From contig CM075988.1 of the NCBI GenBank assembly GCA_038087875.1, positions 9,860,001 to 9,924,000 on the forward strand: 64,000 nt of DNA. The letters are read 5' to 3'. Made by a program: the position numbers and the translations under genes. The notes beneath the pieces were generated by a model, which saw nothing but the letters and a program-made list of their open reading frames with translations, ran no database searches and was not told the origin of the DNA. Numbering within the stretch: position 1 is the first letter of the stretch; the number at the start of each line of letters is the position of its first letter. Below are positions 413 to 43,216 of this stretch, piece after piece. The stretch is from Malacoraja senta. Lineage: Eukaryota.

Positions 413-552
413 GACAGCGGTATCAGAGTTGGGACTGGACGGAGAGGTGACTGAGTAGAGAGGTAGCTCCAGACCAGGACACTGAGAGTAGGAGAGAGAG
501 TAGAAATTAATGACCGACCGTACGACCGTCCGGAGAAAGATTCTAGAGGCCC

Positions 553-1752
553 ATGGCTTCAGGGAGTGGTGGTTCTGAGGGTGGTGGGTGGCAGACTGTA
601 GGTAAGGAAAAGGGGGGCTCTAAGAGAGAGGCATCGAGCGAAAGACCTGAAATGTCAGGAGATGAAGGAAGTAAAGTTAGGAGAACTAAAATTATTGAAG
701 AATTCGTCGTGCTGTTTAAAGTTAAAGGAACAAATCACGGAGATGCAGGATTTAGAGCAGTGAATCCATTAAAAATTACCACCGCTTTGGAGAGCCAGAT
801 AGGTAGGGATTTTCAGGCCAAGATTCTGTATAATGGGATGTTAAGAGTTTGTTGCAAAGACAGAAAACAGTTTAATGACGCTAGGGGTGTGGGGAAGTTG
901 GTGGTCAAGGTGGAGAGTTTGGTCCCTAGAGGAAGAGAGCAGGGAATAAAGGGAGTGGTGTATGGGATGTATGATGGCTTGTCTGAGAAGGAGATCTTAG
1001 AAAATGTTAAGGGGGCCCAGGTAATTGATGTTGTGAGATTTAAGAGTAGGAATGGAGTCAGGGACCAGCCGGTCCTGCTTACGTTCAAAGATGGAGTACT
1101 GCCACAGAGAGTGTTTCTTGGGAGTATGGCGTATCAAGTGAGGGAGTACATTAAACCACCGTTGCGCTGCTATAACTGTCAGAGGTTTGGACATGTTGCT
1201 GGGTCTTGTCGGGGTAAAAGAAAGTGCGCAAAGTGCGGTGGAGATCATGCAATAAAAAATTGCAAGGCAGAGGCTCCTAAGTGCCCTAACTGTGATGGGG
1301 ATCATGCAGCAGGGTTTCATGGTTGTAAGCGCTTTGTTCAGGCGAAGCGAGTACAGGAAGTGAAGGATCAGAACAACGTGTCATATGCAGAGGCAGCTCA
1401 AAGGGTGGCTAGAGAACGCGGAGATGTGAGCGCTGGGACTAGAGTGGTGCTAGGAAGCCAGATCACTGTGCCAAACTTGCCGTCGGCTTTTCCATCTGAT
1501 ATGTTGATTTTTAATAAGGAGTCATTTCTGTCTTTTGTTTCTGATGTGCTGGTAGGAGCTAAGAAAGCAGCTAACCGGTCAGATATCATCAGGTTAGTGG
1601 TGGGGGCAGCTGAAAGGTTCCTCAGTGTAAATCAGTTGCCAGAAAAGTTGCATCAATACATGATGGAGAGTCAGTGTATGGAGAGGTCACAGTTGTCGAG
1701 AGCTAGCAGTATGGAGTATGTCAGTGAGGTGGATGATGGTGATCCTCATTAA
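553..1752 (+). CDS. LINE ORF1p, gag-like nucleic-acid-binding protein with three zinc knuckles
   Basis: 399 aa; CYNCQRFGHVAGSC, CAKCGGDHAIKNC, CPNCDGDHAAGFHGC followed by the SYAEA motif typical of I/Jockey-group ORF1. Confidence 0.93.
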   Translation: MASGSGGSEGGGWQTVGKEKGGSKREASSERPEMSGDEGSKVRRTKIIEEFVVLFKVKGTNHGDAGFRAVNPLKITTALESQIGRDFQAKILYNGMLRVCCKDRKQFNDARGVGKLVVKVESLVPRGREQGIKGVVYGMYDGLSEKEILENVKGAQVIDVVRFKSRNGVRDQPVLLTFKDGVLPQRVFLGSMAYQVREYIKPPLRCYNCQRFGHVAGSCRGKRKCAKCGGDHAIKNCKAEAPKCPNCDGDHAAGFHGCKRFVQAKRVQEVKDQNNVSYAEAAQRVARERGDVSAGTRVVLGSQITVPNLPSAFPSDMLIFNKESFLSFVSDVLVGAKKAANRSDIIRLVVGAAERFLSVNQLPEKLHQYMMESQCMERSQLSRASSMEYVSEVDDGDPH

Positions 1753-4700
1753 CATCATAATGTTTTATATACTTCAATGGAACGCCCGGAGTCTGATTGG
1801 AAATGGTCAAGAGTTAAAGAGATTTGTTGATGAATTTAAAGAAGCACCAGAATTAATATGTATCCAAGAGACATGGTTAAAGCCCTGTTTAGATTTTGTA
1901 ATCCCAGGTTATGAATGTGTGCAATTAGATAGGTCTGATAGATCAGGTGGGGGTTGTGCAACTTTTGTTAAGACTGGGTTGCAGTATAGGAAAGTTGATA
2001 TTAATTCTAATCTTGAAGTTTTGGCTGTGGAAGTTTGGAGCAGCCAGAATTCTATCATTGTGATAAATTATTATAACCCCTGTCAACCCTTGATATTGTC
2101 AGATTTTGATGAGATAATGGAGAAGGTAAGGTGTCCTGTTCTATGGATTGGAGATTTTAATGCGCATAATCCTTTATGGGGTAGTGATCACAGGGATAAA
2201 AATGGTGTTATTGTTGAAGAATTTCTAGACAAGTATGAGTTGGTATTGTTAAATGATGGAAGGCCGTCTAGGTATAATATTGTGAGAAACACCTGCAGCC
2301 ACATAGATTTATCAATTGCTTCATCAAATTTCGCAAGAATTGGTGAATGGGATGTAATGGATAGATATACACTGGGTAGTGATCATTATCCAATTTTATG
2401 TAGGTTTGGTAGGGATTTGAGGAGAGAAGTGGAAAAGAAAGTCCCTAGATATAACTTTTATCAGGCCAAATGGGATAAATTCCAAGAGAAGGCTCAAAGT
2501 TTAGTTGGAGAGGTTAATAGTGAGGGTTCTGTAGATAGTTGGAATACTTCCATTAGTCTCATGATTCATGAGGCAGCTTGTTGTACTATTCCTGTGAAGC
2601 AGGAACTTAGGTCCCGTATGTCTGTTCCTTGGTGGAATAAAGAATGTGATGAAGCTGTAAGGAATAGGAATATAGCCTATCGAAAATTAAGAAAGTATCC
2701 AATTTTGGTCAATGCAATGGAGTACAAGAGGCTAAGGGCAGTAGCAAGACGAGTTGTAAAGGATGCAAAGAGGAATAGTTGGAGGAAGTTTTGTGGTACG
2801 CTAGGCCCGGAAACTCCAGTAAGGCATTTGTGGTCAGCTGTGCGTAGAATGTCAGGAGTATATAAAAGAAGTTTGTTACCAGTGTTGCAGAAGGGTGAGG
2901 TGGTAGCAGTCACCAATAAGGAAAAAGCAGACATGTGTGTTGACAGTTTTCAAGCAGTGCATAGATCAGAGAGCATGGGAGTGGAGAGGTGTAGAAAGAG
3001 AACCGAGATGATGGCAGTTAATCAGTGGAAGCTGGAGAGGAGTTTAGTAAATGATAATACCTTTAATTTGTTTTTTACCATAAAAGAGTTGAAGGATGCA
3101 ATTATGTCTGGGGCAAATACCACCCCGGGGAGAGATAGGTTGTCGTATGAGTTATTTAAACATCTGGATGATATTGTACTTGATGAAATCTTAGCTTTGT
3201 TTAATACTGTGTGGGCAGAGGGTTATTTACCAAAGGAATGGAAACATGCAGTCGTGGTCCCTATTTTAAAACCGGGTAAAGAGGCATCTGACCCTAGTTC
3301 ATATCGCCCTATAGCGCTCACAGCAGTGCTCTGTAAAATTATGGAGAGGATGGTAACCAACAGACTAGTTTATTTTTTAGAAACCAGAGGACTATTTGTT
3401 GATGTACAGAATGGCTTTAGGAATGGAAGGTCTACAATGGAGTCTGTATCAGTTTTGGATCAGGATATTAAAAGGGCATTTAGAAGCAAGGAAACAGTAG
3501 TGAGTGTATTCCTTGATATTGAGAAGGCATATGATTCTTTGTGGAAGGAGGGATTAATGATTAAAATTTTTGACTTGGGAAACAGGGGACGAATGTTCAA
3601 CTGGATTAAGGATTTTTTATTGAATAGAACAATACAAGTAATGGTTGGTAGTGTCAGATCGGAGTCTGTAGAAATAGAGAATGGAACCCCGCAGGGAAGT
3701 GTTATCAGTCCAGTTTTATTTAATATCATGATAAATGACATATTTTGTAAATTAGAGAGAGGATTTGGTCTGTCTTTGTTTGCAGATGACGGGGCCATCT
3801 GGAAAAGAGGTTGTAATGTAGAGTTTGTTTTAAAACAGATTCAAAGAGTGTTAGTGTCTGTAGAGGAATGGGGGAACACATGGGGCTTTAAAATCTCTGC
3901 CTCTAAGACTAAATATATGGTATTTGGTTTTAAAAGAAAGTTACCTAAGTTAGGGCTGTATATGTATGGGTCTCTATTGGAGAAGGTAAAGGTTTTTAAG
4001 TTTTTGGGTGTTTGGTTTGAAGAGCGTATGACTTGGGCTGTGCATGTAGGTAAAATTGTGTTGAAGTGTGAAAAAGTTCTGAATGTTATGAGAAGTCTGG
4101 TTGGGTGTGAGTGGGGGGCCAACAGGGAGACAATGTTGCTAATTTATCAGGCCATGATCAGATCTTCTCTTGACTATGGGTGTTTTGTGTATGGGTCTGC
4201 GTCTAAAACTGTTCTGGCTAGGCTAGATGTGTTGCAGGCAAAGGCTTTGAGGCTTTGCTGTGGAGCCTTCAGGACTTCCCCAGTCCCTGCCCTGATTGTT
4301 GAAATGGGAGAAATGCCCTTATGGTTAAGGCGCATTAAGCTAGGGTTACATTATTGGGCTAAACTTTGTGGGTGTAATGTTACCTTCCCAGCAAGGTGTT
4401 TGTTGCAAGAGGTTGATGATGGTAACAAATATAACACATTTTTTGTCGTTATAAATCAGTGGGCTAGGAAGCTGGGTTTGGAACAAGGGGGTATTATAGA
4501 GCATACAATAAGGCTACCTGTGCCCTATTGGGTTCTTCCTGAACTGTTTATTGAGCTTGCTTTTCTTCAGGAAAAAGATAAGCGCGAGGTGACTCCAAGA
4601 ATAGTGGAATATCTTAATTCAATCAGTGAGAGTACTTTGATTGTTTTTACAGATGGATCTAAAGATCCAGTTAGTGGGAGAGCTGGGTTTGGAGTGTATG

Positions 4701-5497
4701 TGGAGCAGCTTGGGTTGAAGATTGGCCGGCGCATTTCTGATGGAAGTTCTGTTCTCACGACTGAATTAATGGCAATTCAATGGGCTCTATGGTGGATTGA
4801 GGAAGCCAGTTTTAGAGAAGTCATTATCTGTTCTGATTCTGCAGCTGCTCTTGAAACTTTAAGAGTAGGGAAATCTAAAGCTCGTCCTGACATTCTAAAT
4901 GAAATCTTGAGTGTGTTTTCTAGAATTGGGTTTGCGTGTAACATCACTTTTTGCTGGGTTCCCGGGCATGCTGGGGTGAGGGGGAATGAGCAGGTGGACC
5001 TCATAGCAAAGGAGAGTTTAAGAAGAGAAATAGATATCCATGTATCATTGGGGAGAGTGGAACTGAGAGAAATAATTAAAGAGGGCTTAACAAAAGAATG
5101 GCAGAGAGGATGGGAAATGGAAGTCAGGGGTAGACACTACTTTTCTATACAATCTGAAGTTAGGAAAATATGTTTCTGTACATCTCTGTCCCGTAGGGAC
5201 TCAGTTAAACTGTGTAGATTGAGGTTGGGACACTGTGGGTTAAATTACTATTTGTGCATTGTAGGGAAACATGTTTCTGGCTTGTGTGAATGTGGGAGTA
5301 ATGAGACAGTTAAGCATGTTTTCCTAGAATGTAAAAAGTATAGGGTAGAAAGAAAAGTATTATTTGTTAGACTGACAGGACTTGGAGTTGAGGCTTTTTC
5401 TGTTTTATCTTTGTTTGGACACAATGAGAAACATCAACTGATATCCAGGGCTGTTCTTCAATTCCTGCAAGTTACAGGACTGTATATAAGAATTTAG
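1718..5497 (+). CDS. LINE ORF2p: AP endonuclease - reverse transcriptase - RNase H - C-terminal CCHC (true start may be ATG 1733 or 1760)
   Basis: 1259 aa open frame; APE (QWNA, QETW, GDFNAH, SDHYP), RT (YRPIAL, QNGFR, DIEKAYD, GTPQGS, FADD, KFLG), RNase H (FTDGSK, CSDS, WVPGHAGVRGNEQVD), CECG..ETVKHVFLEC. Confidence 0.96.
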   Translation: MSVRWMMVILINIIMFYILQWNARSLIGNGQELKRFVDEFKEAPELICIQETWLKPCLDFVIPGYECVQLDRSDRSGGGCATFVKTGLQYRKVDINSNLEVLAVEVWSSQNSIIVINYYNPCQPLILSDFDEIMEKVRCPVLWIGDFNAHNPLWGSDHRDKNGVIVEEFLDKYELVLLNDGRPSRYNIVRNTCSHIDLSIASSNFARIGEWDVMDRYTLGSDHYPILCRFGRDLRREVEKKVPRYNFYQAKWDKFQEKAQSLVGEVNSEGSVDSWNTSISLMIHEAACCTIPVKQELRSRMSVPWWNKECDEAVRNRNIAYRKLRKYPILVNAMEYKRLRAVARRVVKDAKRNSWRKFCGTLGPETPVRHLWSAVRRMSGVYKRSLLPVLQKGEVVAVTNKEKADMCVDSFQAVHRSESMGVERCRKRTEMMAVNQWKLERSLVNDNTFNLFFTIKELKDAIMSGANTTPGRDRLSYELFKHLDDIVLDEILALFNTVWAEGYLPKEWKHAVVVPILKPGKEASDPSSYRPIALTAVLCKIMERMVTNRLVYFLETRGLFVDVQNGFRNGRSTMESVSVLDQDIKRAFRSKETVVSVFLDIEKAYDSLWKEGLMIKIFDLGNRGRMFNWIKDFLLNRTIQVMVGSVRSESVEIENGTPQGSVISPVLFNIMINDIFCKLERGFGLSLFADDGAIWKRGCNVEFVLKQIQRVLVSVEEWGNTWGFKISASKTKYMVFGFKRKLPKLGLYMYGSLLEKVKVFKFLGVWFEERMTWAVHVGKIVLKCEKVLNVMRSLVGCEWGANRETMLLIYQAMIRSSLDYGCFVYGSASKTVLARLDVLQAKALRLCCGAFRTSPVPALIVEMGEMPLWLRRIKLGLHYWAKLCGCNVTFPARCLLQEVDDGNKYNTFFVVINQWARKLGLEQGGIIEHTIRLPVPYWVLPELFIELAFLQEKDKREVTPRIVEYLNSISESTLIVFTDGSKDPVSGRAGFGVYVEQLGLKIGRRISDGSSVLTTELMAIQWALWWIEEASFREVIICSDSAAALETLRVGKSKARPDILNEILSVFSRIGFACNITFCWVPGHAGVRGNEQVDLIAKESLRREIDIHVSLGRVELREIIKEGLTKEWQRGWEMEVRGRHYFSIQSEVRKICFCTSLSRRDSVKLCRLRLGHCGLNYYLCIVGKHVSGLCECGSNETVKHVFLECKKYRVERKVLFVRLTGLGVEAFSVLSLFGHNEKHQLISRAVLQFLQVTGLYIRI

Positions 5498-5588
5498 TTC
5501 AAACTTTGACCTGTGGAGGGCAGTAATACGCTTAGCAGCGTCTACACTGCCGGAATCCTACAAGAAGAAGAAGAAGACAGCGGTATCA

Positions 5589-6517
5589 AGCTAATGGAGG
5601 CACTAAGGATACATTTGGGTCATTATAATAGACCCATGCAGTTATCAGCAGAGGCTGTTTCTGATTTGCAATGGTGGATTCACCATGTGTCTAGGAGTTC
5701 TAGCAAGGTAGTGCTTGACCAGCCTTCCATGATTTTGCAGATGAATGTCAGTGCACTCGGGTGGGGTGTCACGGATATGAGTTTCAGCTGTGGAGGCAGA
5801 TGGACTGAGCAAGAGGCATCGCTTCTGCAGACATGGAGAATTAACTATTAAGAGCTTTTTATGGATAAGGCTCATTGCTCTAACAAAGGTATCCTGCATG
5901 TTCAGTTTCAGATTGACAATACTATGGCAGTGGCATATATATTAATCACATCGGTGGAATCAAGTCGGTATCTTGTGACAGATTGGCTAATCAAATTTGG
6001 GCCTGGTGCATTGAAAAAGATATTTGGTTTTCAGCTATTTATCTACCAGGTAGATTCAACATAGTAGCAGACGCCAAGTCACGAAAGTTCCATGACAACA
6101 CAGATTGGATGTTGAACCAGGAGGTGTTCAATAATATAGTACTTATATATGAATGCCAAATATCGATTGTTTTGCATCGATGTTTAACCACCAGCTGCCT
6201 AAATATGTTTCATGGGAACCAGACCAGGGGGCAGTTGCAATTGATGCTTTCTCGCTACATTGTGGTGGTATGTTTTTATATATTTTCCCACCATTCTGCC
6301 TCATAGGTCGGAGTCTGAAAAAATCAAGCAGGATGCCACTTTGGGGGTGCTTGTAATACTTAATTGCCCGACTCCAGCATGGTTCCCTTTGATGTTACAG
6401 TTAGCGATCCAACCTCCTTTGGTGGTTCCCAAGCATAGGAATTTACTGGAGCATCCGCTAACACGGGAAAGTCATCCGTTATGTGATCGTATTGACTTGT
6501 TAATTTGCAGGATTTAA
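5589..6517 (+). pseudogene. DIRS RNase H and Dam-like methyltransferase relic (frameshifted)
   Basis: LQWWI, (D)VSALGWG, IDNTMAVAYI, YLPGRFNIVADAKSR, then IDCFAS..NHQL..Y, DAFS, YIFPPF, AWFP across ORF fragments 5513-6517. Confidence 0.88.
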
Positions 6518-6539
6518 GGCCATACCTGGGGCGAGGACT

Positions 6540-6742
6540 GTGTGGGCGAACGGTGGACATGCTCACTGCAGCCTGGAGAAAGAGTACTCAAAAGCGTTAT
6601 ATTACTTATGTAAAAAATGGGAGCAATATTGTGTACAAAATAATATTGACTATAGTACTGCAGGTATTGTGGATATTTTAGAGTTCCTGTCGACACTCTA
6701 CAATGATGAGGGGCTCAGTTATAGCACCATTAATTCAGCTTT
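6540..6742 (+). pseudogene. DIRS tyrosine recombinase relic, N-terminal piece
   Basis: KKWEQYC...ILEFLSTLYNDEGLSYSTINSA; continues at 7512 after the L1 insertion; same text as ORF 21449-21781 of copy B. Confidence 0.85.
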
Positions 6743-7965: not shown

Positions 7966-8281
7966 TGTATTGTATCCTAGGTAAGGGGAGTATGAGGGCC
8001 AGGGCAGTTTACTGTTCTGGATGTTAGATGTATTGTATCCAGGGTAAGGGGAGTATGAGGGCCAGGGCAGTTTACTGTTCTAGATGTTAGATGTATTGTA
8101 TCCAGTGTAAGGGGAGTATGAGGGCCAGGGCAGTTTACTGTTCTGGATGTTAGATGTATTGTATCCTGGGTAAGGGGAGTATGAGGGCCAGGGCAGTTTA
8201 CTGTTCTAGATGTTAGATGTATTGTATCCATGGTAAGGGGAGTATGAGGGCCAGGGCAGTTTACTGTTCTGGATGTCAGAT
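7966..8281 (+). repeat. Five tandem 63-bp units spanning the CR1 ORF1 start
   Basis: GTAAGGGGAGTATGAGGGCCAGG begins at 7981, 8044, 8107, 8170 and 8233. Confidence 0.95.
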
Positions 8282-9176
8282 GTGGGAAGTCATGGAGTCT
8301 GATAGCCCTCCAGACGTCCACATCTGCGCCAGGTGCATCGAGATGGGGCTCCTAAGGGACCGTATTAGGAACCTGGAGCAGCAGCTTGATGACCTCCGTC
8401 TGGTCAGGGAGAGCGAGGAAGTCATTGAGAGGAGTTACAGGGAGGTGGTCACTCCAAGACCACAGGAGGCAAGCAAGTGGGTCACGGTTGGGAGAGGCAA
8501 GAGGCACAGGCAGGGACTAGAGAGTACCCCGGTGGCTGTACACCTTGACAATAAGTACTCCTGTTTGAGCACTGTTGGGGGGAACAGCCTACCTGGGGGT
8601 AGCGACAGCGGCTGGGCCTCCGATACAGAGACCAGTCCTGTTGCTCAGAAGGGTCAGGAAAAGAAGAGGAGGGCAATACTAATAGGGGAATCTATAGTTA
8701 GGGGGTCAGACAGGCGATTCTGTGGACACAGTCGGGAGACCCGGATGGTAGTTTGCCTCCCTGGTGCCAGGGTCTGTGATGTGTCTCAACGTGTCCAAGA
8801 TATCCTGAAAGGGGAGGGAGCGGAGCCCGAGGTCGTGGTACATATAGGTACCAATGACATAGGTAAAAAAAGAGAAGAGGTCCTGAAAGGAGAATTTACG
8901 CAATTAGGAGGGGAGTTAAAGAGGACAGCAAAGGTAACAATCTCGGGATTACTGCCTGTGCCACGCGACAGTGAGAGTAGGAATGGAGCGAGGTGGAGGA
9001 TAAATGCATGGCTGAAGGACTGGTGCAGAGGGCAGGGATTCAAATTTCTGGATCATTGGGACCTCTTTTGTGGAAGGTGCGACCTGTACAAAAAGGATGC
9101 GTTGCACTTGAACCTGAGGGGGACCGATATCCTGGCGGGGAGATCTGCAAAGGCTACTGGGGAGACTTTAAACTAG
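8217..9176 (+). CDS. CR1 ORF1p: Cys-rich finger, coiled coil and SGNH esterase-like domain (likely start ATG 8244)
   Basis: CSGC...CARC, heptad LRDRIRNLEQQLDDL, IGESIVRG, CLPGA, VHIGTND, ISGLLP, DALHLN. Confidence 0.88.
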   Translation: MYCIHGKGSMRARAVYCSGCQMWEVMESDSPPDVHICARCIEMGLLRDRIRNLEQQLDDLRLVRESEEVIERSYREVVTPRPQEASKWVTVGRGKRHRQGLESTPVAVHLDNKYSCLSTVGGNSLPGGSDSGWASDTETSPVAQKGQEKKRRAILIGESIVRGSDRRFCGHSRETRMVVCLPGARVCDVSQRVQDILKGEGAEPEVVVHIGTNDIGKKREEVLKGEFTQLGGELKRTAKVTISGLLPVPRDSESRNGARWRINAWLKDWCRGQGFKFLDHWDLFCGRCDLYKKDALHLNLRGTDILAGRSAKATGETLN

Positions 9177-9493
9177 AATGGTTGGGGGGAGGGACTCAAA
9201 TAGAGAAAGCTATTAGACAGTGTGTGAGGCAGGAGGCAGAGAAGGAAAGCACTCAGCCCCAACATGTAGGGGGGAAATAAGAAAACAATAATAAACAGAG
9301 AAAAAGAGGTGGTGGGTTTCTTAAATGGGTGAGCAGAGAAACTGAGGGGTGTAAAATGCGGGTGGAAGCAATAGGTAGCAAGGTGAAAAGTAAAAGTGGC
9401 AGGCAGATAAATCCAGGGCAAAAATGAAAAAGGGCCACTTTTCAACATAATTGTATAAGGGGTAAGAGCGTTGTAAAAACAAGCCTGAAGGCT

Positions 9494-12291
9494 TTGTGTC
9501 TCAATGCAAGGAGCATTCGTAATAAGGTGGATGAGTTGAACGTGCAGGTAGCTATTAATGATTATGATATAGTTGGGATCACGGAGACATGGCTCCAGGG
9601 TGACCAAGGCTGGGAGCTGAACATCCAGGGATATTCAATATTCAGGAGGGATAGAGAGAAAGGAAAAGGAGGTGGGGTAGCGTTGCTGGTTAGAGAGGAG
9701 ATTAACGCAGTGGAAAGGAAGGACATTAGCTTGGAGGATGTGGAATCAGTATGGGTAGAGCTGCGAAACACTAAGGGGCAGAAAACGCTGGTGGGTGTTG
9801 TGTACAGGCCACCTAGCAGTAGTAGTGAAGTTGGGGATGGCATCAAACAGGAAATTAGAAATGCGGCAACAAAGGCAAAACAGTTATAATGGGTGACTTC
9901 AATCTACATATAGATTGGGTGAATCAAATTGGCAGGGGTGCTGAGGAAGAGGATTTCTTGGAATGTATGCGGGATAGTTATCTAAACCAACATGTAGAGG
10001 AACTAACGAGAGAGCAGGCTATTCTAGACTGGGTATTGAGTAATGAGGAAGGGTTAGTTAGCAGTCTTGTTGTGCGTGCCCCCTTGGGCAAGAGTGACCA
10101 TAATATGGTTGAGTTCTTCATTAGGATGGGGAGTGACATTGTTAATTCAGAAACAATGGTTCTGAACTTAAAGAAAGGTAACTTTGAGGGTATGAGACGT
10201 GAATTGGCCAAGATTGACTGGCAATTAGTTCTAAAAGGGTTGACGGTGGATATGCAATGGAAGGCATTTAAAGACTGCATGGATGAACTACAAAAATTGT
10301 TCATCCCAGTTTGGCAAAAGAATAAATCAGGTAAGGTAGTGCATCCGTGGATAACAAGGGAAATCAGGGATAGTACCAAAGCAAAAGATGATGCGTACAA
10401 ATTAACCAGAAAAAGCAGCATACCAGAGGACTGGGAGAAATTCAGAGACCAGCAGAGGAGGACAAAGGGCTTAATTAGGAAAGGGAAAATAGATTATGAA
10501 AGAAAACTGTCAGGGAACATAAAAACTGACTGCAAAAGTTTTTATAGATATGTGAAGAGTAAGAGATTAGTTAAAACAAATGTAGGTCCCTTGCAGTGAG
10601 AAACAGGTGAATTGATCATGGGGAACAAGGATATGGCGGACCAATTGAATAACTACTTTGGTTCCGTCTTCACTAAGGAAGACATAAATAATCTGCCGGA
10701 AATAGCAGGGGACCGCTGGTCAAAGGAGATGGAGCAATTGAGTGAAATCCAGGTTAGTCGGGAAGTGGTGTTGGGTAAATTGAATGGATTAAAGGCCGAT
10801 AAATCACCAGGGCCAGATAGGCTGCATCCCAGAGTACTTAAGGAAGTAGCTCCAGAAATAGTGGATGCATTAGTGATAATTTTTCAAAACTCTTTAGATT
10901 CTGGAGTAGTTCCTGAGGATTGGAGGGTAGCAAACGTGACCCCACTTTTTAAGAAGGGAGGGAGAGAGAAAATGGGGAATTACAGACCAGTTAGTCTAAC
11001 ATCGGTAGTGGGGAAACTGCTAGAGTCAGTTATTAAAGATGGGATAGCAGCACATTTGGAAAGTGGTGAAATCATTGGACAAAGTCAGCATGGATTTACG
11101 AAAGGTAAATCATGTCTGACGAATCTTATGGAATTTTTCGAGGATGTAACTAGTAGAGTGGATAGGGGAGAACCAGTGGATGTGTTGTATCTGGACTTTC
11201 AGAAGGCTTTCGACAAGGTCCCACATAAGAGATTAATATACAAACTTAAAGCACACGGTATTGGGGGTGCAGTATTGATGTGGATAGAGAACTGGCTGGC
11301 AAACAGGAAGCAAAGAGTAGGAGTAAACGGGTCCTTTTCACAATGGCAGGCAGTGACTAGTGGGGTACCGCAAGGCTCAGTGCTGGGACCCCAGCTATTT
11401 ACAATTTATATTAATGAACTGGATGAGGGAATTGAAGGCAACATCTCCAAGTTTGCGGATGACACTAAGCTGGGGGGCAGTGTTAGCTGTGAGGAGGATG
11501 CTAGGAGACTGCAAGGTGACTTGGATAGGCTGGGTGAGTGGGCAAATGTTTGGCAGATGCAGTATAATGTGGATAAATGTGAGGTTATCCACTGTGGTGG
11601 CAAAAACAGGAAAGCAGACTATTAACTAAATGGTGGCCGATTAGGAAAAGGGGAGATGCAGCGAGACCTGGGTGTCATGGTACACCAGTCATTGAAAGTA
11701 GGCACGCAGGTGCAGCAGGCAGTGAAGAAAGCGAATGGTATGTTAGCTTTCATAGCAAAAGGATTTGAGTATAGGAGCAGGGAGGTTATACTGCAGTTGT
11801 ACAGGGTCTTGGTGAGACCACACCTGGAGTATTGCGTACAGTTTTGGACTCCAAATCTGAGGAAGGACATTATAGCCATAGAGGGAGTGCAGAGAAGGTT
11901 CACCAGATTGATTCCTGGGATGTCAGGACTTTCATATGAAGAAAGACTGGATAGACTTGGCTTATACTCGCTAGAATTTAGGAGATTGAGAGGGGATCTT
12001 ATAGAAACGTACAAAATTCTTATGGGGTTGGACAGGCTAGATGCAGGAAGATTGTTCCCGATGTTGGGGAAGTCCAGGACAAGGGGTCACAGCTTAAGGA
12101 TAAGGGGGAAATCCTTTAAGACCGAGATGAGAAAAAACTTTTTCACACAGAGAGTGGTGAATCTCTGGAACTCTCTGCCACAGAGGGTAGTTGAGGCCAG
12201 TTCATTGGCTATATTTAAGAGGGAGTTAGATGTGGCCCTTGTGGCTAAAGGGATCAGGGGGTATGTAGAGAAGGCAGGTACGGGATACTGA
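9494..12291 (+). pseudogene. CR1 ORF2 (APE-RT) with one frameshift and two nonsense codons
   Basis: NARS, ITETW, YRPP, GDFN, SDH; NYRPVSL, QHGF, YLDFQKAFDKV, GVPQGS, FADD; frameshift near 9865, stops at 10597-10599 and 11623-11625. Confidence 0.95.
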
Positions 12292-12379
12292 GTCGGATGT
12301 TCAGCCATGATCATATTGAATGGCGGTGCAGGCTCGAAGGGCCGAATGGCCTACTCCTGCACCTATTTTCTATGTATCT

Positions 12380-12990: not shown

Positions 12991-13040
12991 TGAGAAGCCG
13001 AGATTTGAATCTGCGGCATAAAATCACAGAGCTTTGAACT

Positions 13041-14938: not shown

Positions 14939-16561
14939 CATGTTTCAAGTGTTTAGTACTTACTGGAACCCTCTCCCAGTTCACAGAAGTTCAGCTCAGT
15001 TTAGTTTATTGTCACGTGTACCAAGGTACGGTGTGTTGCTTGCTAATCAGTCAGCGGAAAGACAGTACATGATTACAATTGAGCCATTTATAGTGTATTG
15101 ATACATGATACAGGAAATAACGTTTAGTTAAAGGTAAATCCAGTAAAGTCCGATCAAAATGGCCACCAATGAGGTAGATGGTAGTTCAGGACTGCTCTCT
15201 AGTTTGTTTCTTCCTCACTTATTCAGTGAGCACTTGCTCACATGACTGCAGTGCTTTCTGAGTCCCAGCATTAAGTAACTTCCACTCTCGTCCTTGTACA
15301 ATGGATCAGCTCCTTCCTTGGTCCCCATCCAATTTTTGAAGGCTGCTCACCTTCAGGCCTCAGATGTCGTGACCTGATAATTGACGCTTCGAGCACAATC
15401 TCCGCGGAGCTCCCGTGAGCTGCACTGAAATCGTCATGTTTCGAGAATAACTCCGAGGGCAGAAATTTTATTTGTACCAAAGTAATGTCAGGTCACAAAA
15501 GGCAATTACGAAATGTCCCACTCAAGCGTGGAGTCGCCCACACTAGCCACATGCTGCAACTAATTTAGCTGAGTGGAATTTCTATCTCAGCTAAATTAAT
15601 TAAATGTCTTACAAAAGCCACATAAAAAATAATGGAAGAATTTATTCATGGCATACCTAATTAAAAATCTCATCTGCATAGAGCAATGTTCAGATTACTT
15701 GAAGCAAAATTTAAATTTGCAATCCTGTGATCCAAATCTACATCACAGTAATATTACAGTATGGCGACTTTCTGCATTTATTCTTTGAGCAGTGGCTTGA
15801 AAGTGGCTCTAGAGGTGAGCACCAGTTAATGCTGCTGCCACAATTCCAACAGCCCAGGATTGATCCTGAACTCTAATACTGTCGGCATGAAATCTCCCAT
15901 TCACTGCATGAGTTTCTCCTGAGTGTTCTGGTTTCCTCCCACATCTCAAAGTCATGCTTCTTGATAGGTTCATTGGCCACTGTAAATTACTACTAGTAGG
16001 AGTGCCTATCGTGGGCAAAGTCAATGCACAGGGTGTGAGAAGGGACAGATTAAAGGGAAATGAGGAGAATGGGACTGATAGGAATTCTCCTCAAGGTATG
16101 CCTACTTTGAAGATGTTCTCCTCTTCTCTACGATCAGAGTTCTGCAACATCCTTTCTTGCTGCACCCCCCCTCTGTGCTTTTCAGACCTTTCATTCATTT
16201 GTTCTTTGTACCCTTTCATACCTCTGGTTTCCCTCTCCCTGACTCTTGATCTGAAGAAGGGCCTCGACTCTTCTCTTAGGGGTAACGGAATCAAGGGATA
16301 TGGGGAGAATGCAGGAACGGGGTACTAATTTTGGATGATCAGCCTTGATCATATAGAATGGCTGAAGGACTCGAAGGGCCAAAATTGCCTATTCCTGCAC
16401 CTATTTTCTATGTTTCTATGACCCAAAACATCACCTATTCCTTTTCTCCAGAGATGCTGCCTGACCCGCTGAGTTACTCCTGCATTTTGTGTCTATCTGA
16501 GGATTTTTTGTGAGTTGGCATAGACCTGCTGTGCTGAAAGGCCTCACTTCATGTCAAGAGA

Positions 16562-16615
16562 AGGGCGGGAGATTGCAACCTTCACATGGTCCACCCTGTT
16601 TCGACTAATGCAATT
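16562..16615 (+). ncRNA. Minimal HDV-like ribozyme motif
   Basis: P1 AGGGCGG/CCACCCT (1 mismatch), P2 GATTGCA/TGCAATT, P3 ACC/GGT, L3 TTCACAT, G for P1.1, stub P4 TTTCGA, J4/2 CTAA with putative catalytic C16605. Confidence 0.75.
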
Positions 16616-16702
16616 AACCCGACGTGCACAAACAAATAGATGTCGTTTTTCATGCCACTTGATCTACAACTTTAGGCTGTGCGCGGCATACGCAAGAAGA
16701 AG
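16563..16702 (+). mobile_element. 140-bp non-autonomous retroposon with 5' HDV-like ribozyme and (AAG)3 tail
   Basis: Perfect 12-bp TSD ATGTCAAGAGAA at 16551-16562 and 16703-16714; AAGAAGAAG tail; HDV-like fold at the 5' boundary. Confidence 0.85.
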
Positions 16703-17779
16703 ATGTCAAGAGAAATATGAAGCAATATGAGAAAATATCTGTCTTTCTGTTGCAAAATAAAGCACTGGAGGAACTCAGCAGATCAGACAGAATCTGTAAA
16801 GTGTATGGTAAGGTGATGTTTCAGGCTCAAAAGTATGGAGAAGGGTTTTGACCTGAAAAGTCACCTCTCCATTGTCTCCACAGATGCTGACTGACCCTAT
16901 GAGTTCCTCCATCACTTTGTATTTTGCTCAAGAATCCAGCATTCGCAGTTTCTCGAGTCTCTCTCTGTCTTTGTGCTGGTAGTTGTCATCATTTACCTGT
17001 AGGCTGCTGTCATTGAGAACATCCAATGGAGATTCTTTTTACCCATTTTGCCTGGTGGAAATTATCTGATAAGGTTTTGAAGCAAGGTGACATCCACATT
17101 TGGGAATAGTTGCACAACGACAGCAGAGTGCACCCACAGGCTCATTGGTTCTGCCTCATTTAGCACTGTTTATTCAACCTGACAATCTGAATTCATAAAG
17201 TCATACAGCGCGGAAACAGAGCTTTAGCCCACAGAGCCCACGCAACCCATGAAGCACACATGAAGCTATGAAATAGAGCTACCAAGTAAATTGTTCCATC
17301 TATAAATCAGTTTCAAGAAACTAATAAAAGGTCTTTATGCAATACCTCTCACAACATTCAAAGTAGCTCCAGAGAAAAAAATATATTTAGGGAAATATGG
17401 ATCCAATTAATGTTCAGTAAGATCGTATCAACAACAATAATATTAAAGATCAAATAGGTAGATACAAAGACCAGAAATTTTATTTAATTACTAACTGAAT
17501 GATAATAATGTCCAGGAGCTCAGTATAATTTCCACCTCTTAATTGTCACCCTTTTAAGAATTCAAATGTTTAAACTTCCACCCTGTCCAATCTGCCTTCC
17601 ATGGCATTATATGTTTTTATCTCATTAAATGAAATGAGATGCACTCTGTTCATCTTTCCCTGATATTTACACCCTATTTCTTGTGCCAGTAAATCCTCTC
17701 CGCGTCCTCTCCCAGTGCCACATTATTATTTTCCCAATATGAGGACTAGAATTGTGCACAGTACCAGCATGTGGTCTAT

Positions 17780-20340: not shown

Positions 20341-23300
20341 AATAGTAAGATTAAACGAGAACTTACCAGTTTGAAGTTTGATCTTTATTTTATGAGGAGT
20401 TACGTCGGTGATTACGCGAAGAAGACCCGTCAGGGCGCATGAGCGTCAATCTTCAAAGCAGCGGTATGAAATCACAGACAACACAATATTTGAAGTAACA
20501 TATTAAGATGAGCAACATGAGAACTACCATATGACCTTTTTTTATGAGAGAGGGTTGGGCGTGGCGGGCACGTAATCACCAACGTAACTCTCATAAAATA
20601 AAGATCAAACTTCAAACTGGTAAGTTCTCGTTTAATCTTACTATTTTACTTCGGAGTCACGTGAGTGACTACGTGAAGGGTTCAAAGCTCTGTGATTCTA
20701 TGCCGCAGATCCAAATCCCGGCCTCACTGCATTGATTGACCTTCGATGAGAAACAATCAATAATCCGTTAAACATGAAATGTGAATATCATGCAGTAACA
20801 ATTGATTTGAATAATCAAAACAAACAGTAACCCGTCTATCCCAGGGGAAACTAAACAGGACTTAATACTGAATTTGCAAACAACCTCTCTGCGATTGGCT
20901 TATGGTAAAAAAAATTAAATAATTCATTTGACCACCTGCCACCTATAAAAATATGGCCGCTGTGAACATCCATCGCTCTAGCCGATGACGTTGCTGCTGC
21001 ACTAGTGGAAAAAAGATATATACACTTCAGTGTTAATACCTGCCTTAATCAACATTTGCTTTAAACCACCTTGAGATAGTCTGCACTGACACTCTCCTAT
21101 GTGGCTTCATGTAACTGATAAACAATGCTGTTTCCACATTTCTTAAGGTCTTTATAGCTTCAATATAATGAAAATAAATGTGCCATCCCACATAAACATG
21201 GATCAGTAGGTTATGCTGAAACACAATTTTAACAAACCTGTGACACCTGGCCTGCTCTGCTTAAGCAGGATGCAATTATATAACATAACATTCTCTTCAG
21301 CAACTTCCATCCAGTCTAGCAGAAGTTTTTGCAAAATCTGCACTTGCTACGCTGAACCAATGCCAAGAGCATAACCACTTTCATGATTAGTTTGGCAAAT
21401 TCAGAGACATGACAGGAACCTACTTTCGAAGCATCTTGAAGACCACACTTACATCCCAAATCGCCATATACCTGGGTTTAGGAGGTTTAGAGTTGAAATT
21501 CCTTTCATCAATCCAGCTATGATATGATGAAACTCAATAGGATCTTTCCTGACCCCATCAAAACCATACGAGGACAAAGCACTTAAAGCTGTATTAATGG
21601 TGCTATAACTGAGCCCCTCATCATCGTAGAGTGTCAACAGGAACTCTAAAATATCCACAATACCTGCAGTACTATAGTCAATATTATTTTGTACACAATA
21701 TTGCTCCCATTTTTTATGTAAGTAATATACCCCTTTTGAGTACTCTTTCTCCAGGCTACAGTGAGCAAGTCCACCGTTCACCCAGCCAGTCCTTGCTCCA
21801 GGTATGGCCTTCTTAAAACCTGCAAATTAACAAGTCAATACTATCACATAACAGATTACTTACCCGTGTTAGCGGATGCTCCAGTCAATTCCTATGCTTG
21901 GGAACCACCAAAAAGAGGTTGGATCCCTAACTGTAACATCAAAGGGAACCATGCTTGATTCGGCCAATTAGGTATGACAAGCACCCCCAAAGTGGCATCC
22001 TGCTTGTTTTCTTGCAGACTCCGACCTATTAGGCAAAATGGTAGGAAAATATATAAAACATACCACCCCAATGTAACGTCAATGTAATATCAATTGTAAC
22101 TGCCACCTGGTCTGGTTCCCATGAAACCTATTTAGGCTGCTGATGGTTGAACCTTGATGCAAAACAAATCGATATCTGGCATTTATATATAAGTACTATA
22201 TTATTGAACACCTCCTGGTTCAACATCCAATCTATGTTGTCATGGAACTTTCCTGACTTGGCGTCTGCTACTATGTAGAATCTACCTGGTAGATAAATAG
22301 TTGAAATATATTTTTCAATGCACCAGGCCCAAATTTGATTAGCCAATCTGTCACATCTCAGGTTGCTGCCTACAGCAGCCGCCAGGACTAGCCATGCAAA
22401 TCGATGCTCTGTTGGTATCCTCCTTCCCCTAACAGGCTGCACGTGCTAGCGACTCCAAATCGTGCTCCTTCCCGATGCCAACGGCGTCTATAGGGAAGAA
22501 TTGGTGTGCCTCTGGCCCTCGTACATCAGACATAGTGGGAAATGCTGGAACAAAACTTAACAGTTATTTGTCATAGGCAAAGACATTTATGTGAATGAAG
22601 ACGCCCATCCCAGTTAAACCTGGGATTTATTTACTTTTAATATGAATAATCCGGCGTTTTGGGGGAAAAAACATGCACAGTCCCTTTAATGAGCAGAATT
22701 ACTATGACGCCACCTGCTGTAACTCCCACAGGTGACTGATAATACAGCTCAACAAGGCTTCCTATTTCCTTAATTGAGTAAATGATAATCATCTGTCTCG
22801 GTATGATAGTCACAATGTGACCAAGTGGTAACTATAATGTCTACCCTTTTGAACGCTTCCCAAAATTTGGTGGGCAGCACTGCCGGGATGCGTGAATTGT
22901 AAACCTAGACCTGAAACCTCCACAGAATTTGCAGAAAATGCTACTGCCATAGACACATAAGGGTGATAAAGCACTAATCTCACTTCCTGAGTTGGGACTC
23001 ATATGGGCTGCCAAAGTCGGGGTCCCTGCCTCAATGAGTCGTGTAGTAAACTATCTCGACCACCCCGACGACCACGCTCAGTCGGCATCCCGAACACCCT
23101 CGGGAGTCGCTGACCTTACTGTCAGCGACTTTAACAAGAGGTCCGACGGCCACCGGCTCCTCACTTTACCGCGGACCGTATCCGGTATCCCCGCGGTCTA
23201 GAGAAACCCTGCGGCCCATATTTAAATACATCTCGGGAGTCGCTGACCTGCCTGTCAGCGACTCAAAACAACGAGCCCAACAGCCACTTCTATCGTGACC

Positions 23301-33118: not shown

Positions 33119-33983
33119 AAAGAAGGAACTGCAGATGCTGGAAAATCGAAGGTAGACAAAAATGCTGGAGAAACTCAGCGGGTGCAGCAGCATCTATGAA
33201 GCGAAGGAAATAGGCAACGTTTCGGGCCGAAACCCTTCTTCAGACTGATAGGGGGTGGGGAGAAGAAAGGAAAAAAGGCGGAGGAGGAGCCCGAGGGCTG
33301 GGGGAGGGGAGGAGACAACCAGAGGGCTGATGAAGGGGAGGGGACAGCAAGGGCTAGCAGAGTTGGGAGAATTCAATGTTCATGCCCCCAGGATGTAGAC
33401 TGCCCAAGCAGAATATGAGGTGCATTTCCTCCAATTTCCGGTGTTGCTCGCTGTGGCCATGGAGGAGACCCAGGATGAGATGCAAGACTCCTCCCTCGAT
33501 TCCATTCAAGGACCCAAGCAGTCGTTCCAGGTGCGACAGAGGTTCACCTGCATCTCCTCCAACCTCATCTATTGTATCCGCTGCTCTAGATGCCAGCTGA
33601 TCTACATCCGTGAGACCAAGCGGAGGCTTGGCGATCGTTTCGCCGAACACCTCCGGTCGGTCCGCAATAACCTACCTGACCTCCCGGTGGCTCAGCACTT
33701 CAACTCCCCCGCCCATTCCATATCTGACCTCTCTGTCCTGGGTCTCCTCTATGGCCACAGCGAGCAACACCGGAAATTGGAGGAAATGCACCTCATAGTC
33801 CACTTGGGCAGTCTACATCCTGGGGGCATGAACATTGAATTCTCCCAACTTTTTTCCTTTTTTCCTTTCTTCTCCCCACCCCCTATCAGTCTGAAGAAGG
33901 GTTTTGACCTGAAACGTTGCCTATTTCCTTCGCTCCATAGATGCTGCTGCACCCGCTGAGTTTCTCCAGCATTTTTGTGTACC
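33119..33983 (+). mobile_element. Penelope-like element fragment (GIY-YIG endonuclease) with inverted 5' copy
   Basis: FTCISSNLIYCIRCSRCQLIYIRETKRRLGDRFAEH...VAQHFN...LEEMHLI..LGSLHPGGMN; inverted arm 33119-33475; 16-bp TSD TAAGAACTT(C/A)ATTGTT at 33103-33118 and 33984-33999. Confidence 0.92.
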
Positions 33984-35832: not shown

Positions 35833-35985
35833 GAAACAAGGAACTGCAGATGCTGGTTTAAAATAACATGACATAAAGTGCTGGAGTAACTCAGCGGGTC
35901 AGGCAGCATCTTTGAAGAATGTCACCTATCCTTGTTCTCCAGAGATGCTGCCTGACCCGCTGAGTTACTCAAGCACTTTGTAACG
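35833..35985. mobile_element. Palindromic Penelope-derived mini-element (hammerhead core deleted)
   Basis: AAAGTGCTGGAGTAACTCAGCGGGTCAGGCAGCATCT / AGATGCTGCCTGACCCGCTGAGTTACTCAAGCACTTT arms. Confidence 0.8.
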
Positions 35986-38640: not shown

Positions 38641-38947
38641 AACAACAGAGAGAGCTGGACATAATCAATAGGTCAGACTGCATCTGGGAAGAGAGAAATT
38701 TATATTTTCAGGGCAATGAAAGCAGACAAACACTAAACTAGGAATACACAATAGACTGCAGATGCAGGAATTTTTTAGAAAAAAACCCCAAAAGGTAATA
38801 TTTGTGGAGTGAAATTGTGTTGGGACTTGTTCAGTCTAAATAATGCACGAGAATGGTAATTGTTTAAAGGAGAAAAAGAATGAGATGTGGTGGAATGGAT
38901 TAATATGAGGTTAACGCTTAGCGGTGGGGAAGAGTAGGGGCACCACA

Positions 38948-38999
38948 GAAGGAAGGAAGGAAGGAAGGAAGGAAGGACGGACGGACGGACGGACGGACG

Positions 39000-39030
<31 letters not shown>
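38948..39030. repeat. Compound microsatellite (GGAA)n(GGAC)n(AGAC)n
   Basis: Direct reading. Confidence 0.97.
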
Positions 39031-39814: not shown

Positions 39815-40040
39815 GCAAGGAACTGATGCTGGTTTAAACTGAAGACAGACACAAAAAGCTGGAGTAAGCTGGAGTAACTCAGTGGGTCAGACAGCATCTG
39901 TGGAGAAAAGGAATAGATCACGTTTTGTCAAGACCCATCTTCAGACACAGAAGAAGGGTCTCGACCCAAAAAGTTACCTATTCCTTTTCTCCACAGATGC
40001 TGTCTGACCCACTGAGTTACTCCAGCTTTTTGTGTCTATC
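39815..40040. mobile_element. Palindromic Penelope-derived mini-element
   Basis: Near-perfect arms GACACAAAAAGCTGGAGTAA..CTCAGTGGGTCAGACAGCATCTGTGGAGAAAAGGAATAG and their complement; CCTTGCATTATAA flanks both sides (about 39796 and 40045). Confidence 0.82.
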
Positions 40041-40934
40041 TTTCCCTTGCATTATAAACTGATACAATTTTCCTTCAAGCTTCTGCTGATCTACAGTTAA
40101 TTTAATGCCATAGCACATCACACACTTCATGATCAGCAATTTTTCAATTGCATTGCCCTGAACGTAGGTAGAGATGTGCAATCGAATTTCACAACACACC
40201 ACTGGCACAAATGTCATCTCGCAAGAGTTCAAGTTGTGATATTCATCTGGGAAGACAAAGGAAAAACATGCTTTATAACAATTTCCTCAAGTACTAATGA
40301 GATTGTTGGATTGCATTGGGATTCTTATGTATCAATTGTGACAAGCAGTGAATAGTAGCAATTAATCACAATGCTCCTGTAATAATCATCTTTTCATACT
40401 TCTGAAGCAAATAGAACATGGCTTGACCCCCTAGATAAATCAAACAATCTAAAAATTACAATTGTAAATGGCTGCAAGCCAAGATTACATGACCAGGCAT
40501 GCACTGCTCTGTCCCATATGACTTAGTTTATGTCATCACTTTCCAGCTCATGTGTACTTTGTTCATGAGGCTTGAACATACCTTATCGCAGAAAACGATT
40601 TTCTCCCTAACTTCCTCGAACTCTCTGATATTCTAATCTCTTATATATGGCAGTTTGAATTGCTCCATCACTGATGGCCCTGTATAATGCAACATGGAAA
40701 ATGCAATTTTGTGCATTCAAATATCATTCCTGAAATACTGACACCAACAGAATGACTCATTCTTCTCACATCTGGGAGAATGTGCTCACAGAAAGGAAAC
40801 TGATGCTATTTTAGAAGATATATATTATTAGTAATAGATATAACAAAGCAAAAAATGAGTCAGAAAATATGGCAAAGTGGGTGGCATTCAGAAGTTATGG
40901 GGAAATTATATATGATTGACACTAATGGAGGTAC

Positions 40935-41275
40935 TTTCTCTAACTTCAAGTAACCCCTACATTCCGTCTCTCTCCATCCCTTCCCCAACCTAGTCGCACC
41001 AGCTTCTTGTTCTCACCTAGCAAACAGCTAATAATGGCCTGCTTCCTTTATCATCGTTACTTTTTTGCATATCTTTCATTCATTTGTTCTATATCTCTCT
41101 ACATCACCATCGATATCCCTCGTTTCCATTTCCCCTGACTCTCAGTCTGAAGAAGGGTCTCGACCCAAAATGTCACCTTCTATTTCTCCAAAGATGCTGT
41201 CTGACCCGCTGAGTTACTCCAGCTTTTTGTGTCCATCTTCGGTTTAAACCAGCATCTGCTGTTCCTTCCTACACA
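40935..41275 (+). mobile_element. Penelope-like 3' terminus (pseudo-LTR) with hammerhead-like core
   Basis: CAGTCTGAAGAAGGGTCTCGACCCAAAATGTCACC near 41144-41178. Confidence 0.8.
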
Positions 41276-41821
41276 AATACTTGTGTGGTGTGATGTACCT
41301 CCCAGTTTAAAACCTTAATATGACTGGCTGTTATGTTTCCTGCTAAAATTAATAAAGAATATAAAAATCACATAATTGTATGAAAAAAAATCAAAATCTG
41401 AACATCCTCAACAGACATGTGTACTTCTGCATTCTAGCTGCATCAGTTTTCCCCTAACAACTGAGTTATCTGTCTATAATCTGTAAATTGTGTTTCTTAA
41501 AATATTATCTACTGTTGACCTGTCTTTCTCAACAACTCCCAATGCACAGAATTCTCAATAGTATCACATAATTGAATTTTATTAAAAAATAGCCAAAGGA
41601 ATTTAAAAATATTCTGGGGAAGGAATATTAAAAGTAATTTTTGGAAACTCCTATTTCCAATTTGGCAAACACAACGATTAAAGTGTTCAACTTGCATTCC
41701 TGATGGGCCAATTACTTATCCTTCAACAAATATTTCTGCTACTACTGCCACTCAAGCGCAGTGCCTCTCAATATTGTCCTAATCATTTATTTCTCATGGC
41801 AATTTTTGACCAATACCTTAT

Positions 41822-42318
41822 TTGAGTTTGAATTTAGTTTATTGTCATGTGTACCGAGGTACAGTGAAAAGTTTTTGTTGGGTGCTAACCAGCCAGTGAA
41901 AAGACAATACATCATTACAATTGAGCCATACCCAGTGTACAGATAGACACAAAATGCTGGAGTAACTCAGCGAGACAGGCAGCATCTCTGGGTAGATGGA
42001 ATGGGTGTCATTTCGGGTCGGGTCGAAACCCTTCTTCAGACTGAGTCAGGGGAGAGGGAGATACAGAGATAAGGAAGTGTTGGGTGTGAAAATGAAACAA
42101 AGGGGATGACCTCAAAGAAAATGTACATAGAATAGATCATTGTTAGCAAGGAGAAGGTAACAGTGTACAAATAGACGATAAAGGGAATAAAGTGAATACA
42201 TTTAGTGCTCCAGTAAAGTCCAGTAAAGTCCGATCAAAGGTAGTCCGAGGGTCTCAAATGAGATAGATTGTAGTTCAGAACTGCTCTCTAATGGCTGGTA
42301 GGATGGTTCAGTTGCCTG
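41822..42318 (-). mobile_element. Rex1/Babar-like 3' UTR interrupted by a Penelope terminus (about 41945-42160)
   Basis: CAGTGTACA(G/A)ATAGAC duplicated around the insert. Confidence 0.7.
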
Positions 42319-42764
42319 CACAATCGCAGGTTTGATGATCATCAAAAGAATCATTGAAATTACGATGTAGATTCATGGCAAAATACAATCTGGGTAATTG
42401 TTTCATCATTAGATTCAGCTTCTAAAATGAATAAATTAAAAGTAAATAAAAGATTAATAAACATAGATGCTGAAAAACTGTAATAAACCACAAAACATCA
42501 AGAGTCCAGAGTCAGAATTGTTTAGTCATTGGCAATGGGAATGGAACAATGACATTCTTACTTGCTTCAGCTTTATGGGCACATTAACACAACAACACAA
42601 CAAGTACAGTAAATAATGATACAATAAATTATCAGTTATATTTGATAACCAGACTATAATTGTGCAAGTCAAAGTACATGGTGCAATCTTTAAAAAGTCC
42701 ATTGTAGTTTGCTGCTGAGTTGGGGTTATAGTTAGGGTTGTTCAGGATGGTTCAAGAGCCTGAT

Positions 42765-42939
42765 TTGTGTTCTTCTTATCAAATCCACACACAAGATTAC
42801 TTGTTCAACTAGAGCTGAACACACTTCTCGGCATCTGCATACAATGGTGCCTGTCTTGCGCTTCTTGTGCTTCTTGTGCGTGGTGGTGGAAAGATTGGTG
42901 GAAACAGGGCCGCGACGTGAATGGTCTTTCCTTGACCCC
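42765..42939 (-). mobile_element. 175-bp non-autonomous retroposon with 5' HDV-like ribozyme and AAG tail
   Basis: TSD (C)AAGAGCCTGAT at 42753-42764 and 42939-42950; minus-strand 3' end GATAAGAAGAACACAA; inserted in an older Rex-like fragment (42500-43080). Confidence 0.85.
42888..42939 (-). ncRNA. Minimal HDV-like ribozyme motif (P3 damaged in this copy)
   Basis: P1 GGGGTC/GGCCCT with G1.U wobble, P2 GGAAAGA/TCTTTCC (perfect), P3 CCA/CGC, L3 TTCACGT, G for P1.1, stub P4 TTTCCA, J4/2 CCAA. Confidence 0.72.
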
Positions 42940-43216
42940 AAGAGCCTGATGGATGATAGGAAGAAGCTCTTCTTGAAGTTAGAAGTTCATGCTCCCGTCC
43001 TTTCTTCCTGATGATAGGAGCGAGATGAGAGCGTGGCCAAGGTGGTGTAGGTCTTTGTTGATTTAGGTTGCCTTCTTGAATTTCCTGTTATATTTCTAGA
43101 GTAAGTAAATTGAGAATAACAAAAATTAAAGCCTATAGGTCAGGCAGCATCTGTGGAAAGAATAATATTTTGGTTCATAGACGTGTTAGCAAAATATATT
43201 GAACTTTAAGAGGTTT

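Follow-up and report, generated by a model that had tools for sequence, protein, structure and literature searches.

Which autonomous retrotransposon copies the two short elements with ribozyme-like heads that lie in one stretch of skate DNA? The stretch in question, referred to here as the window, comprises 64,000 nucleotides from Malacoraja senta (GenBank assembly GCA_038087875.1, contig CM075988.1, positions 9,860,001 to 9,924,000 of the forward strand), and it holds an intact Nimb-like long interspersed nuclear element (LINE) of the I group with two open reading frames (ORFs) at 426..5575 (+), together with two short elements, element A (16563..16702, +) and element B (42939-42765, -), each headed by a predicted ribozyme of the hepatitis delta virus (HDV) type. 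A sequence-only reading of this window had offered two answers, namely that the short elements are internally deleted derivatives of Ingi/Vingi-type LINEs located elsewhere, or that they are parasites of an AAG-recognising ORF2 protein such as that of the Nimb-like LINE. The analysis described here favours the first answer: with a probability of about 0.72, A and B are ribozyme-headed, internally deleted, non-autonomous Vingi/Ingi derivatives, whose copying depends on the protein of a Vingi/Ingi element at another locus and not on the Nimb-like LINE, which is likely a bystander.

Both short elements are bounded by target-site duplications (TSDs), lack an ORF and end in a tail repeat. Element A, with 140 bp, lies between the two copies of a 12-bp TSD (16551..16562 and 16703..16714) and consists of a head of ~53 nt with a very short P4 (16563..16615), a middle part (16616..16663), in which 16634-16663 represents a minority form, and a family-wide 3′ segment closing with an (AAG)3 tail (16664..16702). 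A short frame in A ends at a stop 18 bases 5′ of the tail, which may resemble the end of a Vingi ORF. Element B, 175 bp on the reverse strand, carries an 11-bp TSD (42950-42940 and 42764-42754; 12 bp if the first G of B is included), a predicted head with a Vingi-type core at 42888..42939, whose P3 has decayed in this copy, and a body with a degenerate tail at 42765..42887, the tail itself (42777-42765) being (AAG)2 followed by AACACAA. As background for these duplications, 0.62% of 5000 random positions had an exact 11-bp repeat 100-250 bp downstream. A check for tRNA, 5S and 7SL heads and for the A and B boxes of RNA polymerase III (Pol III) was negative for both elements. The sequence-only reading had grouped A, B and the LINE as three TSD-bounded insertions ending in AAG repeats; the three insertions and their TSDs of 11-13 bp hold, whereas the common tail holds less well, B lacking a clean AAG run.

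The ribozyme heads were approached with a loose HDV descriptor and then with a tight version, which was fixed after the heads had been seen. The loose descriptor gave 4 matches in the window, comprising both heads and 2 AT-rich matches that were set aside, and the tight descriptor matched the heads of A and B only, with a match in 0 of 100 dinucleotide shuffles of the window; the earlier statement that both short elements are HDV-headed is thus upheld at the level of a predicted fold. Both heads have the layout that characterizes HDV-like ribozymes, a nested double pseudoknot P1-P2-P3 with L3 and a cytosine in J4/2. In A, 16 of 17 pairs form (P1 6/7, P2 7/7, P3 3/3), and in B, which begins with a G-U pair at the predicted cut site, 14 of 16 (P1 6/6, P2 7/7, P3 1/3). 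The similarity between the two heads was equalled by 1 of 300 shuffles; they share L3, the end of P1 and the short P4, while 5 of the 7 P2 pairs are changed on both sides with pairing kept. When the head of a metagenome locus, L036, was aligned with them, 88% of cells paired and 10 of 17 pairs showed two-sided changes, while shuffles gave 66% and 3.7, and 0 of 500 reached the observed level, in a covariation test that comprises three sequences and a structure chosen by the analyst. A and B are predicted to begin with HDV-like ribozymes.

That folds, TSDs and tails might all be products of chance has some ground in the nested folding scores, which do not favour the heads (z of +1.43 and +0.90, in models that leave pseudoknots outside), and in the broken P3 of B. 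Chance is barely credible, however (an Rfam search of the window returned 9 matches at E≤1, none of them HDV-like), given the empty shuffled windows and the match of B's head to published Vingi ends, and for A it is refuted, as A proves to be a multi-species family whose ends coincide with the TSD-defined ends of the window copy.

The link to a particular LINE clade comes from the 5′ ends of Vingi-2_Gav, Vingi-4_Crp, Vingi-2_SPur and Vingi-1_BF, which are printed in the supplement of Kojima (2018; PMC5786205). By eye, B's head agrees with Vingi-2_Gav in 17 of 19 core columns and with Vingi-2_SPur in 16 of 18; it starts like the Vingi heads, and all four published heads appear to fit the same HDV layout, a fold that is the reading of the present analysis and not a statement of the passages concerned. 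From this comparison, the 5′ end of B is judged Vingi-like and probably homologous to a Vingi 5′ end. The core motif alone is not rare, so the weight of the match derives from its position at a TSD-defined 5′ end, within a paired fold. Element A would be tied to Vingi more weakly, through its likeness to B in head core and layout. The proposal of internally deleted Ingi/Vingi derivatives thus gains direct backing for B, from the four Vingi 5′ ends, and a lesser, indirect one for A.

Element A is an abundant, multi-species family of ~135 bp with sharp ends. This was established with contigs aligned to 16495-16760 (element B was outside this alignment) from 4 runs and 3 organisms, of which runs X1 and X2 possibly come from the window's own source organism and X4 and X8 come from others; summed contig depth over A was not taken as copy number. 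Between 2477 and 6031 contigs per run fell on A in all four runs, with nearly empty flanks. Unrelated 5′ flanks start exactly before 16563 in 105, 126, 164 and 205 contigs (agreement 0.36-0.37), and at the 3′ boundary unrelated flanks follow after 16702-16703, with further AAG units there. The many copies of A are dispersed, and their flanks are AT-rich and unrelated to one another. In all four runs the consensus of the 5′ flank ends in G, which would form a G-U pair at the cut site; the window copy has instead the A of its TSD just before 16563.

Variation within the family bears on the predicted fold as well. The variant 16615 T>C, carried by ~99% of depth, turns a G-U pair of P2 into G-C, and 16593 A>G (38-55%) restores the P1 mismatch to a pair, while 16606 T>G (11-23%) lies in J4/2, adjoining the conserved C. 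Loose ends inside A are short, with a median of 12-20 bases and one row of 43, and join 16633 to 16664, so that the main form measures ~135 bp and the middle of the window copy is a minority form; depth at 16648-16656 is below 0.4% of head depth in all four runs. Two further observations concern the family. A variant at 16658 reaches high depth in no runs but the two from one organism (organism A), which suggests a small lineage-specific subfamily with the middle segment 16634-16663. X1 and X2 each contain one contig with a backward joint from 16705 to 16563, a sign that A may now and then form head-to-tail tandems.

When the short elements are set against the resident LINE, little is found in common. 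Whole A and whole B showed no match to the LINE beyond shuffles (74 and 123 of 300 as high), and neither did their heads. Anchored on the tail, the 30 bases before it agree with those of the LINE, represented by a single copy, in 10/30 positions for A and 11/30 for B, and the tail-adjoining 3′ sequence and the stem-loop of that copy are not common to A or B. It could be supposed that a Nimb-like ORF2 protein takes any RNA ending in AAG repeats and so moved both short elements, as the LINE, A and B all have AAG units near their 3′ ends and TSDs of 11-13 bp. Even so, this is highly improbable: B's tail has just two AAG units followed by seven other bases, and runs of at least two AAG units occur 62 times in the window (at least three units, twice). 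According to PMC3747384, the only lineages with relaxed recognition are L1 lineages that bind poly(A), and it cannot be read from a tail type held in common; a structured 3′ UTR (untranslated region), such as that of the present LINE, is described for stringent elements. The second answer of the sequence-only reading, parasitism on the Nimb ORF2 protein, accordingly draws little support from these short or degenerate tails and tail-anchored identities.

An autonomous partner was also sought in sequence collections. The head pattern shared by A and B was matched nowhere in the viral, metagenome and prokaryote sequences searched; for further head patterns the counts were 0, 0, 0 and 1. The Vingi core motif alone was found at 120 metagenome loci, none of which had a tblastn match to ORF1 or ORF2; the only one with the full fold, L036 (4233-4168, -), is an isolated Vingi-type HDV-like head on an animal-looking contig, with no long ORF behind it. 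Of 78 loci from a search for related sequences, three were I-group-like LINE contigs; another such search returned 4 loci, and viral contigs had none. In host-contaminated assemblies, 40 contigs from the top profile matches and 30 earlier loci were inspected, of which 68 of 70 had a frame of the reverse transcriptase (RT) type and none was Vingi-like by eye; one weak HDV match far upstream of an ORF was set aside. As DNA queries in the same assemblies, A and B gave nothing below E 0.3, and motif scans gave counts near controls or zero. A model built from the heads had its best match at E 0.64 in four assemblies, three of them with many animal retroelement contigs, and short frames from B and A, used as protein queries in what are weak searches, gave nothing. 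As a separate observation, the prokaryote assemblies G002, G003 and G001 (behind loci L122, L202 and L121) contained 150, 66 and 8 RVT_1 matches, many in long frames of LINE or long terminal repeat type, and this content is likely contamination from host animals.

Several of these results speak against a Vingi/Ingi origin. No autonomous partner for A or B was found in the above collections, and no long partner extending from inside A was seen among the contig pieces listed (32 of 17,330) or the listed rows of loose ends (24 of 463). The core motif alone led to 120 loci and one full fold, and ribozyme cores are constrained, so that head likeness partly reflects function; the nested folding scores count on the same side. 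The likeness of the 3′ ends of A and B to Vingi ends is putative. Finally, P3 and P1 of A's head do not agree with those of the four published Vingi heads, which makes the assignment of A to Vingi the weaker one and an origin in the RTE clade conceivable. In that case A, perhaps without B, would be a bipartite derivative of an RTE-clade LINE. The deviating P3 is in keeping with this idea, yet L3, the end of P1 and the short P4 are common to A and the Vingi-like B, and the head model, as weak evidence, found nothing better than its E 0.64 match; an RTE origin is thus considered quite unlikely.

A further point on the same side comes from the 3′ end of A, whose family-wide last 30 bases agree with the first half of the LINE 3′ UTR in 20 of 30 columns, a level reached by 6 of 1988 background windows (it exceeds 1982 of 1988). 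The sequence-only reading had stated that the LINE 3′ UTR does not visibly match either short element beyond the tail; this is right for B, which has no match there (1430 of 1988 background windows as high), and only partly so for A. The last 30 bases could mean that A is a hybrid, with an Ingi/Vingi-type ribozyme head and a Nimb-type LINE 3′ end, moved by the Nimb ORF2 protein; both A and the LINE end in AAG repeats, no Vingi partner appears among the listed contig pieces on A, and the R2/R1 hybrid SIDEs of Drosophila offer a precedent (PMC3414825). Nevertheless, the 30-base segment was picked post hoc, and when the whole body of A is taken against the 3′ UTR, the score is equalled in 14 of 300 shuffles and in 94 of 1988 windows. 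Four bases in the 5′ arm of the stem are, moreover, passed over by the match, which includes neither the 3′ arm nor the 30 bases adjoining the tail, where the tail-anchored identity is that given above, and B has no such match. A hybrid is for these reasons regarded as unlikely. The fuller version, that A is a near-minimal (~53 nt) HDV-headed, SINE-like and abundant vertebrate family (SINE, short interspersed nuclear element), with the ribozyme in place of a Pol III promoter, that captured its 3′ end from a Nimb-type LINE and outlived its Vingi/Ingi parent through a switch to the Nimb machinery, is likewise a doubtful proposition.

If A and B are indeed non-autonomous Vingi/Ingi derivatives, their copying may be pictured as follows. 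The element would be read through from a host transcript, as neither A nor B has Pol III boxes, and cleavage by the ribozyme immediately 5′ of the first G would fix the 5′ end, in line with the sharp 5′ end observed in the A family. The ORF protein of the Vingi/Ingi partner would then bind the retained 3′ end, and reverse transcription would be primed at the nick of the target, producing TSDs such as the observed ones of 11-12 bp. Since only the ribozyme core is common to both, A and B constitute two families and likely have two different partners.

The LINE itself was well described by the sequence-only reading, and its intactness, its 13-bp TSD (413..425 and 5576..5588, identical in sequence) and its AAG tail are confirmed. 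ORF1 (553..1752, +) encodes 399 aa with three CCHC knuckles, and ORF2 (1718..5497, +) 1259 aa with APE, RT and RNase H domains; the 3′ UTR (5498..5575) has a predicted stem-loop at ~5519-5551, with z of -1.64 and 11 of 200 shuffles equally stable, and the AAG tail at 5562-5575. Its 5′ end is, as had been claimed, devoid of an HDV fold: neither the loose nor the tight descriptor matched there, and none of the 15 matches at E≤5 of a model from three heads (A, B and L036) lies at that end. This copy, at 5150 bp, is likely near full length, since the contigs that carry several of its full-length relatives measure 5.1-5.4 kb. By using the RT region of ORF2, 736 relatives were found at E≤0.001, the top one with 89% identity; of the 120 listed, those with a name were nearly all teleost proteins. 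In a tree of 30 RT regions the LINE joins its nearest database relatives (support 98/98), within an RNase H-bearing group (90/97) that also includes mollusc-associated contigs; the tree was built from rows without clade labels, and the LINE may belong to I or to Nimb.

The label Nimb-like is our assumption from the architecture, taken beside the description of Nimb in a passage of a locust paper. In keeping with the Nimb clade are the three CCHC knuckles of ORF1, the APE-RT-RNase H order of ORF2 and the presence of relatives in fish and molluscs; the LINE has no ribozyme at its 5′ end. An Atlas search with the RT region returned unnamed RT clusters, and PDB matches, tried as a classifier, were to L1, R2 and other RTs and gave no help in placing the LINE. 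Some side observations belong here. For the RT region within 1718-5497, identity is 89% with a JGI metagenome protein and at most 67% with named teleost proteins among the 120 listed, a sequence pattern that may point to horizontal transfer of the LINE. The LINE is inserted into a decayed coding element (1-412, 5589-6500) with frames of RT- and RNase H-like text, which looks DIRS-like, and parts of 6029-6742 occur again, inverted, at ~21585-22306. A distant RNase H-bearing LINE (locus L274, G001:C74, after 2839) has a 3′ UTR stem motif resembling that of the window LINE, a hint of a possible conserved 3′ signal, without counterpart in element A.

Other repeats share the window with these elements and would suit a cartilaginous fish as host. 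In a CR1-type LINE at 7966-12370, ORF1 encodes an esterase (GDSL) and begins with a 63-bp unit in five tandem copies, while ORF2 is fragmented. An abundant short repeat, with at least 17 copies in the window (for example, 16431-16490 and 35880-35981), often lies in inverted pairs that form long hairpins. Similar repeat sequence flanks the remnants of RT-like and GIY-YIG-like ORFs at 33459-33959 and 50436-51311, which are presumably Penelope-like.

What the two families would mean depends on the reading adopted. If the favoured reading, that of Vingi/Ingi derivatives, is true, two families are added to a known class in a lineage for which no description was found, and sense-oriented copies of A and B could cut host transcripts. 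The A family would also furnish many natural variants of a very small predicted HDV-like ribozyme in a vertebrate genome. RNA gene writers are being developed from Vingi elements, in which the template is a separate RNA with both UTRs (PMC13708176), and a natural template of ~135 bp would hint at the minimal cis signals for such writers. If the hybrid explanation were true, a vertebrate element would have switched its partner across clades, a more surprising outcome.

As regards novelty, the sequence-only reading had proposed a ribozyme/LINE parasite system not described for cartilaginous fish. No description of the A or B families in these fish was found in the literature, with Repbase and Dfam outside the search, so earlier cataloguing is quite possible; the kind of system, by contrast, is not new, ribozyme-headed non-autonomous derivatives having been published for Ingi/L1Tc and R2, and non-autonomous derivatives for Vingi. 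In the passages cited, HDV-like or hammerhead ribozymes occur in metazoan LINEs and SINEs (PMC6765202), and mollusc SINEs have heads, not tails, derived from Nimb (PMC4758252). The shark and ray SINEs HE1, SacSINE1 and SINEX-1_CM/SINE2-1_CM of PMC3747384 are, like A and B, short non-autonomous retroelements of cartilaginous fish; this paper lists only SINEs with tRNA heads for sharks and rays, all with partners of the CR1 group, whereas tRNA heads and Pol III boxes are absent from A and B.

Closer parallels exist in other lineages. NARTc, RIME and SIDER, of the trypanosomatid L1Tc/ingi clade, are short non-autonomous versions of Ingi-clade elements with a 5′ HDV-like ribozyme, for which cleavage has been shown in NARTco and several SIDERs (PMC4035085, in part); these reside in protists and carry a 77-nt hallmark, while A and B belong to an animal genome, with heads of ~52-53 nt whose fold is predicted only. 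The R2 SIDEs and R2/R1 hybrid SIDEs join a ribozyme to a LINE 3′ end and are moved in trans, and they are rDNA-specific and rare, in contrast to the dispersed, abundant A with its unrelated AT-rich flanks (PMC3414825, in part). A further parallel is offered by the non-autonomous Vingi derivatives, namely the internal deletions of Vingi-1_EE and the elements SINE2-1_ACar and SINE2-1_AMi with Vingi 5′ parts (Kojima 2011, cited in PMC5786205). They are likewise short and keep the 5′ and 3′ ends of the LINE, and the core of B matches Vingi-2_Gav, Vingi-2_SPur, Vingi-1_BF and Vingi-4_Crp; the P4 of A and B, at ~6 bases, is shorter than in these four published heads, and SINE2-1_ACar and SINE2-1_AMi have a tRNA head that A and B lack. 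A and B are elements of a known kind, in the published class of NARTc, RIME, the R2 SIDEs and the Vingi-1_EE derivatives.

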